64,000 bases of DNA, taken from assembly GCA_010015805.1 (NCBI GenBank), contig ML978130.1, positions 868,001 through 932,000 of the forward strand. Reading direction: 5' to 3'. Origin of the DNA: Rhizodiscina lignyota (lineage: Eukaryota). Below, in pieces: positions 8,638-64,000 of the stretch (position 1 is its first letter; each line of letters begins with the position of its first letter). Both the position numbers and the translations under genes were made by a program. The notes beneath the pieces were generated by a model. The model had not been told where the DNA came from, ran no database searches, and worked only from the letters and a program-made list of their open reading frames with translations.

Positions 8638-9141
8638 ATGTCTCTAGCTGTTGGAATTGGGGTCAGCGTCGCCGTGGCATTTGCAATAGCAGGTCTGATA
8701 GCTATAGCAATATATTGCGTACATTGGCATACGGAAAGCGTTGTGGGCACTGGAAGTAGTCGAACAGGGGGGGCAGCGCCGCCATGGCCTACACCACCAA
8801 GGACAGCACGGCCGGGACCAGCACGGCCGAGACCAGCACCTACTCCAGCACCACCAAGGACAGCACTACCGGGACCAGTACCTACTCTAGCACCTGCTCC
8901 AGTACCTGCTCCAGTACCTGCTCCGGTACCACCAAGGACAGCACCACCGGGACCAACACCGCCGGGGCCAGCACATACTCCAGCACCCGGAGTGTCTGCT
9001 GCAGCGAACGCAAACAATGATGGGGATGCAGTGCGGGCTCCGGAGGTAAATCGACCAGACGACAGACGCGCTGCACCGGCTGAGACGGAAGAAGGATGGG
9101 GAGCTCAATTATTCCGGTTTCTTTTTGAGAGGGCTCCTTAA
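8638..9141 (+). CDS. Small membrane-anchored Pro/Thr/Ala-rich protein
   Basis: ATG at 8638 (MSLAVGIGVSVAVAFAIAGLIAIAIYC, transmembrane-like) followed by PPRTA..PGP and PAPV repeats. Confidence 0.55.
   Translation: MSLAVGIGVSVAVAFAIAGLIAIAIYCVHWHTESVVGTGSSRTGGAAPPWPTPPRTARPGPARPRPAPTPAPPRTALPGPVPTLAPAPVPAPVPAPVPPRTAPPGPTPPGPAHTPAPGVSAAANANNDGDAVRAPEVNRPDDRRAAPAETEEGWGAQLFRFLFERAP
8791..8990 (+). repeat. Coding minisatellite: CCACCAAGGACAGCAC x3 plus 12-bp CCTGCTCCAGTA-type units
   Basis: Imperfect direct repeats visible in the DNA. Confidence 0.8.
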
Positions 9142-24335: not shown

Positions 24336-25103
24336 TCAGTCGGAGTCTGAGTCACTGCTGCTCTCCTCCTTCGACTTCTGGAAGCAGAGGTTGCCAGCCG
24401 GAGCGATGAACCACTTGCCCGGACGATGAACGTTCTCGATCTCGTAGTAGCTGCGCAGATAACGCGAGCCATCCGTGTCGACAACCCAGAACTCATCACC
24501 AGGCTTGGCGCCATCAGGCTTAATATCCTTTGGCTCATTTGCTCCGCCCTTGTTTGCCTTCACAGCATCGTCGTACTGAACCTCGACCGCGGTGCGACCG
24601 TACCAGTTGTGAGGATTGAATGTCACCTTCTTGTCCTTCTTGTCCTTTTTCTTCTTCTCAGCAGCCACAGGAACCGGAGCATACGCCATCATCGGATAGG
24701 CATAGTAGCCCTGCGGAACTCCGTAGGTTTGACCCGGATTCATCGCCGCGATGCTGTACGGGTGCGGATACGCGTACTGCAAGGGTGGATAGGGAGCCGG
24801 AATCTGGTGACGCGCATAAGTACCCTCCAAGAGCGGAGCAGCGCCAACCTGCGGGTGGAAGGGGGCAGGAACAGGAAAGAAGTGAGGCTGCGGCTGGACG
24901 ACGCGAGGAGGATTGTCGTTGGTAATGATGGGCGGATGCGGATCGGCACCGCTACGCTTCACGTAGCGGAATTTGGATTGCTTCTCCTTGTCTTCCTTGA
25001 CTTTCTGGTCGACAAGATCCTTTGGATGGACCATCATGCCATCCTTGACGGGTTTGCCGGCCGCTAGCCAGTGGATGAGATCGATAGTCTCGAAAGGAGG
25101 CAT
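24336..25103 (-). CDS. Pro/Tyr-rich hypothetical protein with possible upstream extension to 25418
   Basis: MPPFETIDLIHWL...; folded-looking C-terminus WYGRTAVEVQYDD...FWVVDTDGSRYLR...PGKW. Confidence 0.75.
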   Translation of the reverse strand: MPPFETIDLIHWLAAGKPVKDGMMVHPKDLVDQKVKEDKEKQSKFRYVKRSGADPHPPIITNDNPPRVVQPQPHFFPVPAPFHPQVGAAPLLEGTYARHQIPAPYPPLQYAYPHPYSIAAMNPGQTYGVPQGYYAYPMMAYAPVPVAAEKKKKDKKDKKVTFNPHNWYGRTAVEVQYDDAVKANKGGANEPKDIKPDGAKPGDEFWVVDTDGSRYLRSYYEIENVHRPGKWFIAPAGNLCFQKSKEESSSDSDSD

Positions 25104-25771
25104 TTTGCAGAGTTGAGAACGAAGCGTTGCAGGTTTGTTGTGGAAGGGAAGAAGGATGGTGTTGGTTTGAGGTTGTGTCGCGAGAATAAATATAAGGCTG
25201 CGACGTGACGTGGTGGGGCAGGTGATGTAAACAAAAGTCAAGTGAGGTGGCAAGAAAGGTAAATAAGGAAGGAGCTGCTGCCCGAAGCGGAAGCGAACAC
25301 TCTCACTCACCTTTGGCCGGCACCAATACCCCACCACTTCCCTCTCCTTCTTTTTCTTCTTCTTCGGAGGGTCTTCAAGAACCAACTCGGCGAAGGGCCA
25401 GCAGCACGGGAAGCACATGGCGGAGCTCTCTGGCGTTCTGGCCGAGTGCGAAATTGAGCTTTGAGGCGATGTTTGAGGTCACTCTGCTCTTATAGAACAG
25501 TCGAAGTAGATAGTTGCTGAATCACAAGTGCATGTCATGCGTATTGCATGAAATGAGAAAGCTAAAAATGGAACTTCATGTGACTCCAGTCTTAGTGTGT
25601 ATCTCGATGAACCTAAGCGATGACTCTCTCTCTATCCACCCTATCGTGACATCTCGCACTCCTTTCTTTACCAAACAGAGCCAAAGAAAAATTAAAGGGA
25701 GAGTGTGTCCGTTCGGGCGCTAATAAATCTAAACCCAAAAAAAAAGAGCGATCAAAGAGGAATTATGTCGG

Positions 25772-25782
25772 GGAATCGAACT
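25772..25782 (-). promoter_or_regulatory. Pol III B box (TFIIIC site) downstream of the terminator
   Basis: AGTTCGATTCC matches RGTTCRANTCC and is not embedded in a tRNA T-stem. Confidence 0.75.
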
Positions 25783-25795
25783 CGGGGCATTGCCT

Positions 25796-25962
25796 AAAAA
25801 AAAAATTCCGGTGCCGCCACATAAGTCCGTACTCAATTCGGGGTGACGACCGTGTGGATAAGATGGCTGGGGCGTCCGACTGCCCATGATTGATTGTAGG
25901 AATTACTCCTTAGGAAATAAGAGTCGAAAGGCCATACCACCTGCACCACACTGCACACCGGC
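25796..25962 (-). ncRNA. Candidate RNA polymerase III-transcribed structured ncRNA (~160 nt), family unknown
   Basis: A box TGGTGCAGGTGG (25948-25937), T10 terminator (25805-25796), 5'/3' closing helix CCGGUGU/GCACCGG and four further helices, several with G-U pairs. Confidence 0.7.
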
Positions 25963-25986
25963 ATTAAGGGCATCAGAAAAAATATG

Positions 25987-25998
25987 AAATATATATTT
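25987..25998 (-). promoter_or_regulatory. TATA element about 25-36 nt upstream of the candidate Pol III RNA
   Basis: AAATATATATTT at the spacing expected for TFIIIB binding. Confidence 0.55.
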
Positions 25999-28900
25999 GT
26001 ACATCTCCTGCGAAATATCGCCTCTGCGTATTAGTACCATACCAACCATCTCGGAGCTATAACACCTACCTCATACCTACCTTATTTAACATAGCCCCAT
26101 CCTCTCATCATGGCAGTCTCTGCCCAAGTGCATTATTTCCAACGCGTGCGATCTCTAATATTTGCGATCTCTAGTCTTTGCGATCTCTGTGTTCTCGTGT
26201 GATATCGTGTGATATCGTGGGTTCCAGGAGGAAGCCTAACAAAGTGGCTGCATACCACAGGCACAACAAGCGATACCGCGCAAGCCAAAATTGCAATGAA
26301 AGTGAAGCACCGCGCATACACTCTCATCTAAACTAGTTAAAAATTGGATTCCTGAAGTTTTATCTCAGTTTTTCAGACGGTCAAGGTGATCGGTCAACGC
26401 TTGTCGTCCGTTCTCACTTCGCACATCACAACGGCGAATACCGAAGCTAGCCGTTTGGAGCCGCCGCCATGCAGCAAGATCCGAGCATTTATGGAAGGAC
26501 GCTAGCCCGATGTATTGACATGCTCAACTTCCTCCATCAAGATTGACATGAAGCAAGAAATTTGTTGCAGTTGATTCAGATTCTTCTGGCAAACCTGGCT
26601 TTCGGAAAGCGCGAATCGCCGCATTACAATGTGGACGAAACACTTTGAAGACTGCATACTTGTTTTTGGGGCTTCACCTGCCTCCAGCGACCTCACGCTA
26701 TGCGCGGACGATATTTGCAGGCGATATTTCAACTGTCTATCAAATATTCACTGGAAATCATCGGGCCATTACAACTGGCATGCGAATGGAAAAATGTGGA
26801 TTTTTAGTTGCATGAATTCGGCCATTGCAGTGAATTAAGTGCTCAGCCAAAGCAGTGGCAATGATCAATCGTGATTTCCATTTGTAATTCTACCAGAGCC
26901 TTTAAGCAGACATGTGCAATTACTGATTCCCATTAGTTCAACCTTGACATGTGAAACACATGTGCACACTCCGTAACCCCTCCCCAACCCCTCTATATCT
27001 AATAACCAATAGAATCGACAATATGGACCAACGTCCGGATCCTCCCGTCTCTGTTGTGACATTGATTCCGTTGAGATCGAGGTAATAACCAATCAAAGTC
27101 GGCTTACACGCCTCAATACAAATTCGACGTCGTCCATATGGTTGAATCGTCATCAAGGACCGTTTAAAGGACAGGTGCTTGGCAAAGGACTCGGATGATC
27201 GTAGGGTTCGTGGTGATGGTGGAAGTCTATAACTAGGTCTCAATCCCTCCTCTTTCTTTCTCTTCATCGGGTCGCGAGCTTGCAGCCAGGAGTCATGCTA
27301 CCATCGTCCGCGGCGAGAGGCACTTCCTGATCGCTGCATCAAGTCGCTGACAGCCAGCCCTTACAGGTGTCTGGATAAAAGTTCCTGCCGGGGCATTGCG
27401 TCCCCTGACATCCAAGGTATTCACCTTGATGAGACCAATGGTCCAAGTGCATCTGGCTACAGGTTGTTTTGTTACCACCAGCTCTGCAGGCGGATGCTTT
27501 CGGGCCCAACAGCGGTCGGCTAGGTCATCAGGTTGCTGGTGTCTTTGTATCACCTACGGTGCCGATGCCAGTCTCCCATGATCCGAATGGGGAGGGGCTG
27601 TCCATCGGAGCGGTTTTCAGGCCTGATCACCGGTGCGGACTTTTGGCGTCTGGGGTGGTTCCCGGCTGATCTGTCTTAGCTTTGGGGTTAACGCAGGGCA
27701 TTCATACAGCTCAGGCATTCTCGACTTCGGTTGGGATTGTCGCCAACCCATTAGCCTGCGGGCTGCTAGCGACGAAACCAAGGCGGGTCTACGGGCCTTG
27801 CTGCATGTATGGTTGAAGCATCCAAAAGTTCCTAGCTCTCAAAAAGATCCGGGTCAGCGGCGCGAGGAAACAAGTTCGTGCACTCCTCTCAACGCGGCTC
27901 CTGAGCGATCTTTCTCCCGCCCGGCGTCTCAGCCAGCGGAGTTTTCTGTCGGTATATCTGACAGCATGGGTGACGAAGCCCGCTTCTGCACGTCCGGTCC
28001 TCAGGGCCACGTGTCACCCGGGGCACTGTCTCGCAAGAGCAGTGTGCTAACGCAGATCGGTTTCCTCCCTTTTTCATCCCTTCCTTGATGACTTCTTGAT
28101 GACTTTGGCTGACACCTAGCAGGCTGTGATGTTTGCCAATAAATCGTATGTCTAGTCTCTGATCATTTCGCAATCGGTAAGTCAACCAAATCTCCACCTT
28201 TTCTGGATCGCATGCTGACTTTGTCGACGCAGAATTCATCATCACTACCATCATCACCGTCAGTACGCAGCGACGGCAGAATCCAAGTCCTTAAGGCTTT
28301 ATGTTGTTCGACTGACTGATCGACAAGGTTATTATTGTTGTCGCACTCGACTTCAGTTGCTCTGGTGAGTCTGCCCAAGCACATTCTTGCGAGCTCATTG
28401 CTGACAGTTGTGATATTCGCTAGGTCGTGATGTCTTGGAGATGGAGTCTCTGTCGCATCTGTGCAAAAGTATGTCGTCGGTGCTCGCTTTGGGACATCGT
28501 ACATGGAGGAGGGTTGCTGGCCCCCTTGTTGTGCATATATTTCCACAAAAAGATTTCTTCCTCGATCCATTTTTTTCAATTGTAACTGACACATCGTCAT
28601 TGTCACCGTCTCTTACTCGCTGCCTTGGTTGCTCCGCTGACCCGTAGTACTCATCAAGTGTGTCGGCTCGTGGTAATGACGAAGCAGGCGGGTTCTTATT
28701 GCATCGAGTGACTGTCACCTTTGCTGCTGGCACCTCGCCTCGAACTTCCAGATTCCAGAGCGGTCCCAGTACGATTATGACCGTTGAAGCGAAACTGGCA
28801 AGTCGCCACTGTCTGCCCATGTTCGCATACTTTCCACGAAAGTCTTGCACCGCCACGCCTGCAAACATTGGTATGTTCTCTCTTTCTCAATGGTCTTGGC

Positions 28901-29679
28901 TTCTCAATCATCTTGTACGCCCCATTCGATGACTCCTTGCGCACTCATTCCGAAGGGACCTTGACAGTTGCGAAACCGGTACGTTCTTGTCGCCGTATTT
29001 GCTTTCGGCTCCGCTGTAAAAGCATCTCCCACAATGTGACACTCATCGGCATCGGCCAATCAGCGTCTGCGGTCAATTTCGCATATCCGGTGCGCATCGA
29101 TCGTCTTGATTGGCTTGTATATCGGGTATTGGCTTGCCATTCTCGAGAGTAACGAAATAGCTGGCCGCCGAGCAAGATGTAATGCGTAGAGTGAGGAGTC
29201 CTCGCAGTCCAAGGTCAGTGAGACTATCTCTGAAAGATTAGTTCCATATTCGTCAGAGTGTTTATGATAACAACTAACCTTTGAAGAACATGTATGTTTT
29301 ACTCGTGAACGAGGCTATCGACGACAGCAGTTCGGTGTCCTGAAAGCCGCAGTCAACTGTTTTGTCACCGTCGCATCAGATTCTTCCATGGCACAAGCCT
29401 GCTCTTCTGTTCCAACTCCACCGTCGCCACTACTTTATGTCTTGTCTTCTGTGTTGCTTGGCGACATCAACTTCTCCCTCGGCTGTGTCTATCACCGTCA
29501 CATTTTACACATGCATGTACATAGATCATGCAATCGTACCACCATTCACGCGATAAAAACGAAGGATACATCAAGCTTTTAACAATATTTGTCACAGCCC
29601 CGTTTAGAGGATGTGAAAGCTAGCCACGCCACTCTTCAAGCCAAATGATGGCTCCTCCACCTCCCCACTCGTGCTCCTT

Positions 29680-31032
29680 CTATGCCGGCTCCTGCACTGG
29701 CTCCATCCACCTTCTCACCCACAAGATCTCGCCTTCCACTGGGTCCATCACGCACGCGAAGTGCGTACACTCATTCGTAACCGGCCACCGCCTCACCCAT
29801 CTCACAACGTCCTCGATGCCGACAAAGACATCCTCGTCAGTTGTGCCAGGATGCTTCTTACCGAACCTCCGCACCGCTTTCTTCCAGCGTGCTTCCATGC
29901 ACTGCTTCCGATCGATCGATTCGTCCAGCAGATCTTGCAGGTCCGTGAGCACGGCGGTCTCTTGGGTGTGTGGAGAAGATATGGGCGGTTGAGATTCTGG
30001 TGACGGCTCGAACATGAGGTCGTGGTTCGTAGCAATAACGAAGGAGGAGGATGAGCGGATGAGTGCAGTTGCGCGGTCTTTCTCGAACACTGTCGTGACA
30101 GCTCCATTCGAGGCGATTATGTATGCTGCTGTTGTCGTAGCTGAAGGCAGGTCTTTCGTTAACTTCGCTAGGTCCGGAAGTGCCTCATCTTTGTGACCCG
30201 ATGACTCTAGGCTGCGACGCATCGCAGGTGGCAGGATAAAGCCACGCAGCCTTGACGAAATGGATGGTCGCAGTCCCAGTAGAACAAGCACATGATTTCC
30301 GTAGTACCTCAGGTTCGCCAATCTTGAGTCCGAGTCATTGTGGCGTGGCCGGAAGTTCAACGACAAGCTCAGCCCTTCCTGTGCGCCCAACGCTGGCCTC
30401 ACACCTGTCAGAACACCGACGAAACCGACATAAGTGATGCTTCTTGCAAGCACTCTGCCATGCGGTCGATCGACAAACTCAAGCTGCACGACAATCTTGC
30501 GCAACGAATCCATTCCCCAATCCAGTGTACGGAAATGCAGCATCCGCACCTCGCCGTCTGAACACTCCGATCGTATGCCGCCACTGGAACAGCCCATGAG
30601 CATGTCAAGGAGCGTATTGAAGCACACGAGGAGGTACATCTCAACGCCAGTGACCCGACTGATTCCACGGATTTCTTCTGTCTGCTCTTTGCTATGCAGC
30701 CGTCGAAGGAAGACTTTGGCTAATCGCCGGATGGTGGTGATTGATATGTCAGGATAGAGGCTTCCAACTACATCATCGAAGAGGCCTGTCAATCCCTGAA
30801 TGTCGGCCTTGAAAGCCTGCGCGAGTTCGACGTAGCGTTCTGCTGGTGGAAGTGATAGGTCGATTGTGTATATTGGAGGCGCATCTCCAGCTTTAGTTGA
30901 CGCAGATGTGGGCGGCGCATGGGTTGACGGCTGAGAAGCAATCGATCTTCGATCATCATGAGTTACCCCTTCTTCATTTACGTCCGGGAATCCAGATATT
31001 CTGGCTGTCTGCGCACGCGTCGTCGGAGGCAT
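29680..31032 (-). CDS. Acid ceramidase/N-acylethanolamine acid amidase-like Ntn hydrolase
   Basis: IDLSLPPAERY, candidate nucleophile site MG-CSSGG, HFRTLDWGM, GFVGVLTG, SLSLNFR and ATNHD. Confidence 0.9.
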   Translation of the reverse strand: MPPTTRAQTARISGFPDVNEEGVTHDDRRSIASQPSTHAPPTSASTKAGDAPPIYTIDLSLPPAERYVELAQAFKADIQGLTGLFDDVVGSLYPDISITTIRRLAKVFLRRLHSKEQTEEIRGISRVTGVEMYLLVCFNTLLDMLMGCSSGGIRSECSDGEVRMLHFRTLDWGMDSLRKIVVQLEFVDRPHGRVLARSITYVGFVGVLTGVRPALGAQEGLSLSLNFRPRHNDSDSRLANLRYYGNHVLVLLGLRPSISSRLRGFILPPAMRRSLESSGHKDEALPDLAKLTKDLPSATTTAAYIIASNGAVTTVFEKDRATALIRSSSSFVIATNHDLMFEPSPESQPPISSPHTQETAVLTDLQDLLDESIDRKQCMEARWKKAVRRFGKKHPGTTDEDVFVGIEDVVRWVRRWPVTNECTHFACVMDPVEGEILWVRRWMEPVQEPA

Positions 31033-31767
31033 GATGAGCTAATTGATTCAAGGTGAGACTTCACAAGTAAAAGAAAACAAGATTGAATGGGAAAATGTCA
31101 GAGTCATATCATAGTTGAGGATTGCTTGCTAGGCAGCAGACGCTGTCCTACAACGCTCCGCCTCATGGCGCTCGCTGCGCCGCCAACTAGTGGAGCGGTC
31201 ACACAGAGCACTTACTGTGATGAATGGTATCGACTGTGAGAGAGCGTCGAATAACAAAGGTGGATGGGTATTGGGAAGGTCAAGTCATGGACGGTCGAGC
31301 GAAGAAGTTGAATTGAGGTCGTTGCCTAATGGAGCAAGGTGTTGAGCCGGTGATACGTTTATCCGGGTTCTGAATCGCCGACACCGGCGACCTGGGCTTT
31401 CTATATCGTCCAACGTAACGGCTACATAGACTTTGCGATCTCCAAAGCAATATCTAATTGAGCTTTTCAGTGCCTCTTCCAATTCATTGCCATCATATCT
31501 GCATCTTGTCTCTTTCTTACTTTACGAAATGCAAGCCCCGTTGTCGCTATCGGCACTCGGTAACTTCCGTACCCCGGACTGCTGATTGCTGTGAGACCTC
31601 GGGTTTGGATGTGCTTTACCCCGGATTTCTATATCCAATTCTCCCCCTCAGCTAGCTTTCTGCAACCGACTAGTGTACATAGAATCTCGTTTCCTATATC
31701 TCCATTTATGTAGTTTAATTGACTCAGTTCATTCAAGCTGTCTGGTCCAATTTTCTCTGTCGCTGCC

Positions 31768-41295: not shown

Positions 41296-43653
41296 CTAGC
41301 AATACCAGTAAAAGTCCATCTGCCGATTCTGCAATCAACGCGTCAGCAAGCTCAGTTTTCGGAAAGGGAGAGAATGTAAACTCACAGGAGCCACCTGGTC
41401 AATACCACTCCACTCATTGTTGTCCCAATGCCCTTGGTTCGTATACGGCACACCGCCAGCCCAATTATCACTCGTCCACTGCGTCGATCCCGCGCTTATC
41501 GACACAATCCACGACTCCCACGGGACTTGAGGCAAGGGAGCCGGAACAACGAGGGGACTTCGCTTGTCCAGTATTCCATTCTTACTTTTAGTTTTGGTGA
41601 AAGTGCCGGTGATGTCGTACGGCAGTTTGGAGTCGCTGCCCTTGATGACGATGTTCTGGCCCCAGTCCACGGTGTACGAGAACACGGGAGTCTGCGCGTT
41701 GGGGAGCGGATTGCCCGCTCCGTCGAAGACAGTCCACTCAGAGTAAACGTTGTTTTGATAGCCCCAGCTCCATTCGTGCAGATGGAGACGGCAGGTTCCG
41801 CCTGTGTATGCCGGGGGTGGAGCGGAGGTGGTCGTGGGTGGCGGTGGAGCAGCAGTGCTCACTGGGAGGAACGTTGTCGTGCCGAGCTCGCAGGTGTAAG
41901 TGGTAGATGAATCGGTACCAACGGTGCTGCCAATGCCAGCCATCCATCCGTCGTTGCAGCTACAGACTGAGGTTGCAGACAACACGTCTCCACCTGATAG
42001 CGTCGTGGCGGCAAGGGAAGCCAGGGAACATGAGGTGATGGGCGGAGCTGAAGAAGTGGTTCCGCCCGTCGACAGTGGTACAGTTGGACCTGTGGAGAGT
42101 GGTACGGTGGGGCCAGTGGAGAGCGGCACAGTTGGACCGGTAGACAATGGTACAGTGGGGCCAGTGGAAAGCGGAATGCTTGGGCCGGTGGAAAGTGGAA
42201 CGGTTGGACCCGTAGAGAGTGGTATGCTTGGGCCAGTTGATAGTGGTACAGTTGGGCCCGTCGAAAGAGGTATGGACTTTGATGATGTGGCTCCAGTAGC
42301 GGGACCAGAGATCCCTGAGACTGTTGCGCCGGCGCATGCCGTAGGGAAAGGGAAAGTGAGGGATGTCATACATGGCATAAATGCGCCCAGAAATGCTTGA
42401 ATAGATGGGGATAACGCGACAACGTCACCGTCAGTATCATCGCCCTGGAAATCTTGATAGACCGTGATAGAAACGCCGCTCGCGGACGAGGTGATGCTAG
42501 TTGTTGTCGAGAAAGCAGTGATGCTGCAACCAGATACAGTAGAGGTACTAGTCGAACAGACTTCAGTCGTCGTAGTGATAGTTCCGCTTGTGACAGGCGA
42601 AGGCGAACATGTCACATAGAAGTCCTCTGTGACTGATGAGCTCGAGCATGAGCTAGAACTGGATTGAGAGTTGGACTGAGAGTTATTATCGTCGTCGTTG
42701 TTCTCCAACTCTGTCGTAAGCTCCTCGAGGTCGGACAGATCGCTCTCGACCGTGTTGACGAGGTCATCCGTGATAGTGCCGGTAATCTCTCCCGATATCT
42801 TGGTTACCGATGAAACGATACATGATAATAAGGAGAAAAGAGAATGGGTGCAGCCCTTGCTTGTGTCCTGGTCCGAGTCTCCTGAGATGTCGGACAATGT
42901 GTTTTCTACATTGTTCTTAATGTCGTTGAGCCCATTAATGACGGGACCAGTATCCTCCTTTGGATTGTTGATCCAGCCCACGATAAGTGGAAATATACTG
43001 CTGGAAAGCTCAGACTGGATAGCAGACTGAGACGAGCTCGCTGCGGGGCCTGTAGGAGGGATTGTGATCGTCGGGTAGAGTGGAATGGGACTTGTCGTCC
43101 CACCACCGCCGATAACTGGAATTACCGTTGCTACACCGCTAATCGTAGTCGTGACAGACTGTACAGGTGGCGGGACATCTGTGGGTGAGCCGGTACCCAG
43201 TGGAGGCGAGAATGGGACAGTACCTCCAGTTGACAGAGGAGGCGAGACTGACGATGTTACTCCGGTTGATAGAGGAGGCGGAATTGAAGAAGTCCCTCCC
43301 GTTGATAGCGGTGGTGAAACTGGAGCGGTTCCTCCTGTTGATAGAGGCGGCGAGACTGGAGCAGTTCCGCCTGTTGATAAAGGAGGCGAGACTGGAACAG
43401 TAGGTCCCGTCGACAACGGAGGAGAGACTGAGGATGATGCTCCTGTTGACAATGGCGGCGGGACTGAAGATGATACTCCGGTCGACAGAGGTGGAACAAA
43501 AGGTAACGAGACACTTGAAGAGGAGCTCGAAGAGGAAGAACTTGAAGTTAAGGTAGAATTGAGATAAACGCCTGTGCTACCTCCCGTGGGATTAATGGCA
43601 AGCGCATTTGCGAAAGAGAAGAGGCATGGTAGAAGCAAAAAGAGTGTGGACAT
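41296..43653 (-). CDS. Secreted Ser/Thr/Pro-rich repeat protein with Cys motifs and a Trp-rich C-terminal domain
   Basis: Signal peptide MSTLFLLLPCLFSFANALA; two PLSTG arrays; last intron (GTGAGT near 41385...GCTGAC...GCAG) adds terminal exon NRQMDFYWYC*. Confidence 0.8.
42065..42276 (-). repeat. Coding tandem repeat, 24-bp/8-aa unit P(T/S)(V/I)PLSTG x9
   Basis: Read from the translation; the DNA units differ mostly at third codon positions. Confidence 0.9.
43190..43497 (-). repeat. Coding tandem repeat, 36-bp/12-aa unit PPLSTGxxxxVS x9
   Basis: Read from the translation. Confidence 0.9.
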
Positions 43654-63856: not shown

Positions 63857-64000
63857 GTGAGTTTAAAAAAAAAAGACAGGGGCTGACCGAAGGGCAAAAG
63901 AATCAGCTTCGGACCTCACTGTCCTCCAAATCAGATCACACAAAACCCACCCCCCACAGCCCTTCAGCCGAAGGAGCCCGATCCACCTGTCGGGTCCGAT

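Follow-up and report, generated by a model that had tools for sequence, protein, structure and literature searches.

An intergenic, single-copy stretch of fungal DNA (from the ascomycete Rhizodiscina lignyota) carries, on its minus strand, a series of motifs resembling those of a Pol III gene. The window referred to throughout is the whole stretch of DNA that was analysed, 64,000 nt in length. In the direction of the proposed transcription, the locus holds the following features:

25998-25987, minus strand: TATA-like box AAATATATATTT, read directly
25995-25989, minus strand: TATATAT, the core of the TATA-like box AAATATATATTT, -33 to -27 relative to the proposed start
25982-25977, minus strand: T6 run, downstream of the TATA-like box and upstream of the proposed start, read directly; absent from the preliminary description of this DNA
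25962, minus strand: proposed start GCCGGTGT, first base G, read directly
25962-25806, minus strand: body of the proposed RNA, 157 nt or, including a U4 tail, ~161 nt; its predicted fold is a three-way junction
25948-25937, minus strand: A-box-like 12-mer TGGTGCAGGTGG, at +15 to +26, with 2 mismatches to the consensus TRGCNNAGTNGG
25805-25796, minus strand: T10 run as the proposed Pol III terminator, 2 nt past the end helix
25782-25772, minus strand: B-box-like AGTTCGATTCC, 10/11 to the consensus GGTTCGANNCC, 13 nt after T10
25745-25737, minus strand: second T run, T9, 50 nt past T10 and 26 nt after the B box; likewise absent from the preliminary description

The preliminary description had listed a TATA box, a start, an A box, a T10 terminator and a B box, and direct reading across the 64-kb window found each of them at its minus-strand place, with all coordinates correct. 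The arrangement matches the scheme of SNR6, the U6 snRNA gene of Saccharomyces cerevisiae: TATATAT lies about 30 bp upstream of the start, T10 supplies the T-run terminator, and AGTTCGATTCC is a same-strand extragenic B box past the terminator, as judged against its consensus. The candidate for an intragenic A box near the 5' end is TGGTGCAGGTGG at +15, which carries 2 mismatches to its consensus and has 320 matches of equal quality in the window. Calling the promoter 'complete', as had been done, was therefore an overstatement, although the layout itself stands. The distance from A box to B box is 166 bp. GTTCGANTCC occurs once in the window, at the B box (0.63 expected), and TATAWAW occurs 15 times on both strands together. 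No T run longer than 3 interrupts the RNA body. T runs of at least 9 occur at 3 loci of the window, two of them at the candidate (5 pattern matches vs 0.68 expected), and the T9 at 25745-25737, which like the T6 run fits the SNR6 layout, is a possible back-up terminator, or else possibly a piece of a T-tract-rich promoter. The flanks of the B box do not form a T-arm stem, either on direct reading or with ARAGORN. The A-box-like motif lies within a 10-nt x2.2 tandem duplication (25936-25956, TRF), so that the minus strand (GTGCAG-TGTGGT / GCAG-GTGGT) holds two A-box-like half-copies. The remaining T run of at least 9 in the window is a T10 at 63865-63874 on the minus strand, preceded by a G-rich stretch and followed by an ORF-like region; at 126 nt from the window end, it is too near the edge to judge.

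Downstream of the candidate and on the same strand lies a gene for a 255-aa protein (24339-25103, minus strand), with the candidate 690-860 nt upstream of its ATG at 25103. The protein is lineage-restricted and lacks a Pfam domain; a collection of 5.8 billion proteins contains it as such, together with only 4 homologues that share 47-51% identity with it. Its middle is rich in proline and tyrosine, and its C-terminus carries a conserved block (NWYGRT...FWV.DT.G.R..RS..EIEN.H.PG.W). An upstream ATG at 25417 on the minus strand opens a 36-codon frame (MCFPCCW...) that runs to a GTGAGT donor-like site near 25310; this frame (25310-25417) is probably a uORF or due to chance, because the N-termini of the homologues fit the ATG at 25103. 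On the other side of the candidate, a ceramidase-like ORF (29683-31038) is 68% identical to its best non-self match, and the named relatives, among them Coniosporium, Glonium and Lepidopterella, are Dothideomycetes with 52-56% identity. For two pairs of homologues of the 255-aa and ceramidase-like proteins (P0124/P0003 and P0126/P0005), the longest-contig values are shared, 16,154 and 5,514 bp, respectively. These equal values suggest that the two genes remain neighbours in at least two relatives. P0123, another homologue of a neighbour gene, lies on a contig of 3,749 bp.

The stretch between the candidate and the ceramidase-like ORF (26000-29680, ~3.7 kb) is free of long ORFs and, for the window, unusually poor in genes. 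Six ORFs of 119-163 aa in it gave no Pfam match above cut-off and one sub-threshold RING-like match, and none of 9 neighbouring ORFs has a Pfam match above cut-off; this stretch could hold unannotated genes or non-coding transcripts. ORFs that overlap or flank the locus are short only (25-79 aa), and the fine-scale GC profile at the locus shows no sharp island. An intron-like signal at 26080-26024 (minus strand) was considered as evidence of a Pol II transcript and rejected, since the window has 18 such patterns and its reversed decoy 15. Two tandem repeats found by TRF lie 185-260 nt upstream of the proposed start: a 16-nt unit x2.6 at 26147-26188, in which the minus strand carries AGAGATCGCA three times at 16-nt spacing, and a 10-nt unit x2.5 with 100% match at 26195-26219. 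They may be arrays of transcription-factor sites. An ACAGAGA inside the first copy of the 16-nt repeat is a coincidence; Rfam has no U6 match there. Elsewhere in the window, in-phase repeat arrays at 42057-42275, 43198-43449 and 8778-8987, with periods of 24 nt, 36 nt and 15/27 nt, respectively, are presumably repeat-containing coding sequence.

A comparison with Rfam, which the preliminary description had named as a check, found no known family at the locus. At the gathering score, Rfam 15 gave 0 matches in the whole 64 kb; at E<=10, the region 25400-26400 gave no match other than an unrelated mir-3689 at 26182-26225, and the 246 nt of 25730-25975 gave 0 matches with the tRNA model included. 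U6 snRNA was rejected, since there is no Rfam match and ACAGAGA, the U6 box already reported as missing, is absent from 25806-25962 as read directly; in this respect the candidate RNA differs from the product of SNR6. The reported lack of a cloverleaf likewise agrees with ARAGORN, which at default settings found 0 tRNA or tmRNA genes in the window, and with the lack of a match to the Rfam tRNA model.

The searches for relatives at the DNA and protein level have little power and say nothing on conservation, and the label 'orphan' given to the locus previously rests on searches of almost no power. Among metagenome contigs, anchoring on the 255-aa protein gave 594 pattern stretches and no relative, and among genome contigs a 5-member alignment of the 255-aa protein matched 70 stretches, none of them from a relative. 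A pattern of the layout (A-box core, gap, T6, gap, B box) was found at 18 loci of metagenome contigs, all unrelated; BLAST aligned them over at most 32 nt (78%), in the region of the B box. In genome contigs, an 18-mer taken from around the A box was found at 32 bacterial or archaeal loci, with a longest alignment of 27 nt. Exact strings from both RNA ends were found in no paper, and literature searches on fungal Pol III promoters and ncRNAs brought up no description of such a gene.

The minimum free energy (MFE) structure from RNAfold has the same helices that had been drawn by eye and arranges them in the same way, as a three-way junction. The 157-nt body folds at -54.6 kcal/mol with 52 pairs (9 G-U) and z -1.52, and a 161-nt version gives z -1.53, with 15/200 shuffles as good. 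With 167 nt, the fold has -54.6 kcal/mol, z -1.89, 7/200 shuffles as good and a centroid near the MFE structure. On the plus strand it is weaker (-44.5 kcal/mol, z -0.29) and its centroid poorly defined. The strand asymmetry of the fold is therefore real, and it goes in the direction that had been proposed, favouring the promoter strand. For windows of equal size displaced by 20-80 nt, the energies are -31.6 to -47.0 kcal/mol, and the predicted structure is sharply bounded by the proposed ends, though the helix itself was used to choose these ends. The helices and the end helix are thus present as described, but they are within chance: for the 157-nt body 72/1000 shuffles fold as well, and of the 20 T>=6 runs that the window holds, 12 have an end helix of at least 7 bp when the bases just upstream of the T run are compared with a segment 60-400 nt further up. 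Among 5108 GC-adjusted 167-nt windows, 3.7% also fold equally well. The fold lacks significance, and alone it is no evidence. The predicted long arm is a chain of 3-12-bp helices with loops between them, not one long duplex.

Singly, the promoter parts, the fold and the end helix are each weak; it is their combination that is uncommon. The window holds ~320-332 A-box matches at <=2 mismatches (~2.5 per kb per strand) and 13 B-box matches at <=1 mismatch, and 8377 of the 12,770 157-nt windows (66%) are free of TTTT. From shuffles, 1.15-1.29 instances per window are expected of a T run of at least 6 that has a B box in range. We then defined a loose composite as TATAWAW lying 90-440 nt upstream of a T>=6 run, with an A box (<=2 mismatches) 30-75 nt after the TATA and a B box (<=1 mismatch) within the unit or <=150 nt past the T run. 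In the real window, only the candidate locus has it. Global dinucleotide shuffles produced the loose composite in 0/300 windows, shuffles in 500-nt blocks in 2/300 and shuffles in 200-nt blocks in 3/300. An order-5 Markov model gave 0.005 events per window after training on the whole window and 0.048 after training on the ORF-poor 25400-29600, and the reversed decoy gave 0. A strict composite (T>=9 and an extragenic B box) was seen in 0/1200 simulated windows, but its thresholds were picked after the locus was seen, and the honest chance range is for this reason well under one to a few composites per 35-Mb genome.

The closest known design is that of SNR6. In the portion of PMC9136082 that treats this gene, it has a TATA box at -30, a T7 element lying between TATA and start, an intragenic box A that is weakly recognised, and an extragenic box B past the terminator, with 202 bp and a nucleosome separating boxes A and B; the scheme of TATA box, internal A box and extragenic downstream B box given in the preliminary description agrees with this account. 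The candidate resembles it in its TATA at -33 to -27, its T6, its weak A-box-like motif at +15, its T-run terminator and its post-terminator B box, and its A-B distance of 166 bp, compared with the 202 bp given there for SNR6, is also of nucleosome scale. The candidate differs in that its B box comes only 13 nt past the terminator, whereas, in the same portion of PMC9136082, the spacer at this place in SNR6 is of sufficient length to take deletions of up to 65 bp. A further difference lies in the TATA 8-mer, TATATATT here and TATAAATA in SNR6, the latter being preferred by TFIIIB according to the relevant part of PMC1636458. The comparison with SNR6 sets a known gene against putative elements, seen here as sequence signals.

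Two further groups of fungal RNAs are relevant. The major milRNAs of Neurospora crassa are Pol III products, as had been correctly noted; in the sections of PMC3547838 that concern them, milR-1 requires TATA-like elements, no A or B box being predicted for it, and milR-4 is transcribed together with tRNAs. Like milR-1 and milR-4 as described in those sections, the candidate is an intergenic fungal locus, with Pol III transcription established there and putative here; in contrast to them, it has A- and B-box-like motifs, and its arm consists of short looped helices instead of a long duplex. The earlier suggestion of a milRNA precursor thus finds no support, either in this chain of short helices or in the promoter of milR-1, for which those sections give neither A box nor B box, and the locus offers no sign of Dicer-type processing. 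The likelier product seems to be a stable small ribonucleoprotein RNA. In Aspergillus fumigatus, 15 unclassified small intergenic ncRNAs were confirmed by Northern blot, according to the part of PMC2377427 that reports them. These RNAs (Afu-182, Afu-202 and others) are there described as intergenic, 70-600 nt long and without a class in a filamentous ascomycete, like the candidate; they differ in resting on cDNAs and Northern blots, with some conserved among Aspergilli, whereas the candidate is so far defined by its motifs and predicted fold only. The term 'pol III' is absent from the text of PMC2377427.

Several other explanations need to be weighed against a Pol III unit. A tRNA-derived SINE, or another dispersed repeat with its own internal Pol III promoter, would also combine A-box-like and B-box-like motifs with a homopolymer run, all of which are present here. 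But at >=80%, the region 25300-26500 matches only 1 of 15,746 contigs (34.2 Mb from one DNA run), a contig of 27,418 nt with an identical match. On these contigs the locus is therefore single-copy and not a SINE, which answers the dispersed-copies check of the preliminary description. Moreover, none of the repeat families of the window overlaps the locus, and the homopolymer on the motif strand is T, not a 3' A tail; we regard a SINE as extremely improbable. The locus might instead be a B box bound by TFIIIC, perhaps acting as a chromatin boundary, or a decayed tDNA, that is, the relic of a tRNA gene with a surviving B box and a trailing T9, in either case giving no stable product. In budding yeast, the extra-TFIIIC (ETC) sites and ZOD1 have an intergenic B box outside classical Pol III genes, and ETC sites are not known to have a TATA box, an A box or a transcript. 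The B box of the candidate is likewise intergenic and outside a classical Pol III gene, it is the best single motif of the locus (10/11) and unique in the window, and the T9 26 nt past it fits the terminator distance of a tRNA gene. ARAGORN, run with introns allowed and at 90% of its threshold, draws a sub-threshold tRNA-Thr-like figure over 25954-25759, which we rejected as forced: it needs a 105-nt 'intron', places T10 in the variable arm, pairs 3/5 positions of the T stem, and has 2 mismatches and 2 G-T in the acceptor stem. At default settings ARAGORN finds nothing, and the Rfam tRNA model has no match to the 246 nt even at E<=10. Unlike ETC sites, the candidate has TATA-like and A-box-like motifs, which a bound B box or a tDNA relic would leave unexplained, and TFIIIC binding is putative here. 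Overall, we consider a TFIIIC site or a tDNA relic improbable, though less so than a SINE.

The most serious alternative is that the motifs fell together by chance in ordinary intergenic or promoter DNA and that no dedicated small RNA is made. T6, T10, T9 and the TATA would then belong to the nucleosome-poor Pol II promoter of the 255-aa gene or of an unannotated transcript, and the A and B boxes would be coincidental. The position of the locus, on the coding strand 690-860 nt upstream of the ATG at 25103, fits this explanation and counts against a Pol III unit, since T tracts and TATA can be Pol II promoter DNA; the tandem repeats further upstream (26147-26188 and 26195-26219) also resemble regulatory DNA. 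Each by itself, the fold, the end helix, the missing internal T4, the A box and the lone B box lie within chance; about one T run accompanied by a B box is expected per window, and at 0.005-0.017 per window a few loose composites would arise in a 35-Mb genome. However, the full composite is rare in every null, and T>=9 tracts are no general promoter feature in this window, with 3 loci among its many genes. Furthermore, the order, strand and spacing of the motifs are those given for SNR6 in the cited portion of its literature, including two features that were not used in picking the locus. We judge coincidence to be a real contender, somewhat short of an even chance; a small remainder goes to readings other than those named here.

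In our assessment, the likeliest reading, though only slightly ahead of coincidence, is a single-copy Pol III transcription unit that is built like SNR6 but encodes an RNA other than U6, with a probability of about 0.42. In such a unit, TFIIIC would bind two sites, a weak A box inside the gene (25948-25937) and a strong B box past the terminator (25782-25772), and TFIIIB would be placed on the TATA-like box at about -30. Pol III would start at the G of 25962 and stop in T10 (25805-25796), with T9 as a back-up. The product would be a 157-161-nt RNA with an oligo-U tail and with its 5' and 3' ends paired, shaped as an interrupted long arm and a short arm off a three-way junction.

A Pol III unit is favoured by the presence of all parts on one strand in the correct order and spacing, and by two SNR6-like features, T6 and the nucleosome-scale A-B distance, that the preliminary description had not used. 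It is also favoured by the T9 that follows T10, which together make up two of the window's 3 T>=9 loci, by the rarity of the composite in the nulls, by a body without internal T4, and by the better fold on the minus strand, bounded by the proposed ends. The unclassified small intergenic ncRNAs known in filamentous ascomycetes, as reported in part of PMC2377427, point the same way. On the other side, the fold is not significant, an end helix is to be expected from chance, there are 2 mismatches in the A box, and a T run with a B box should occur about once per window. In addition, 66% of 157-nt windows lack TTTT anyway, the strict null thresholds are post hoc, and the TATA differs from TATAAATA, the form that TFIIIB prefers in the cited part of PMC1636458.

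Four extra features, namely T10 in place of T6, T9, T6 after the TATA and a fold at p ~0.04-0.07, lend a real unit only modest weight, and under a model of a T-tract-rich promoter they are in part correlated. Pol III maps of yeast lead to a guess of ~1 real non-Rfam Pol III gene of such layout per genome, within a factor of a few. The frequency of chance composites per genome is similar to this guessed rate. The locus should thus be seen as a candidate at roughly even odds, as far as its sequence can tell, and not as a proven gene.

If the arrangement is a coincidence, it would serve as a calibration, indicating that a full Pol III motif set together with a by-eye fold can arise a few times per fungal genome. 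A more specific proposal, which we hold to be unlikely, is that the locus encodes a new structured ~160-nt fungal Pol III RNA with an SNR6 promoter design, syntenic between the 255-aa and ceramidase-like genes in related Dothideomycete-like fungi. If this were true, the RNA would be the founding member of an undescribed small-RNA family. Beyond tRNA, 5S, U6, 7SL and RNase P RNA, the known Pol III transcriptome is tiny, and it is well mapped only in yeasts and mammals. Such an RNA would add a small RNA for a poorly sampled fungal lineage, in which even a conserved enzyme has its nearest named relatives at 52-56% identity. To our knowledge, it would also be the first gene other than U6 to combine a TATA box and an A box with a B box past the terminator. 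A non-U6 gene on the SNR6 plan would mean that this unusual promoter design is a reusable module.
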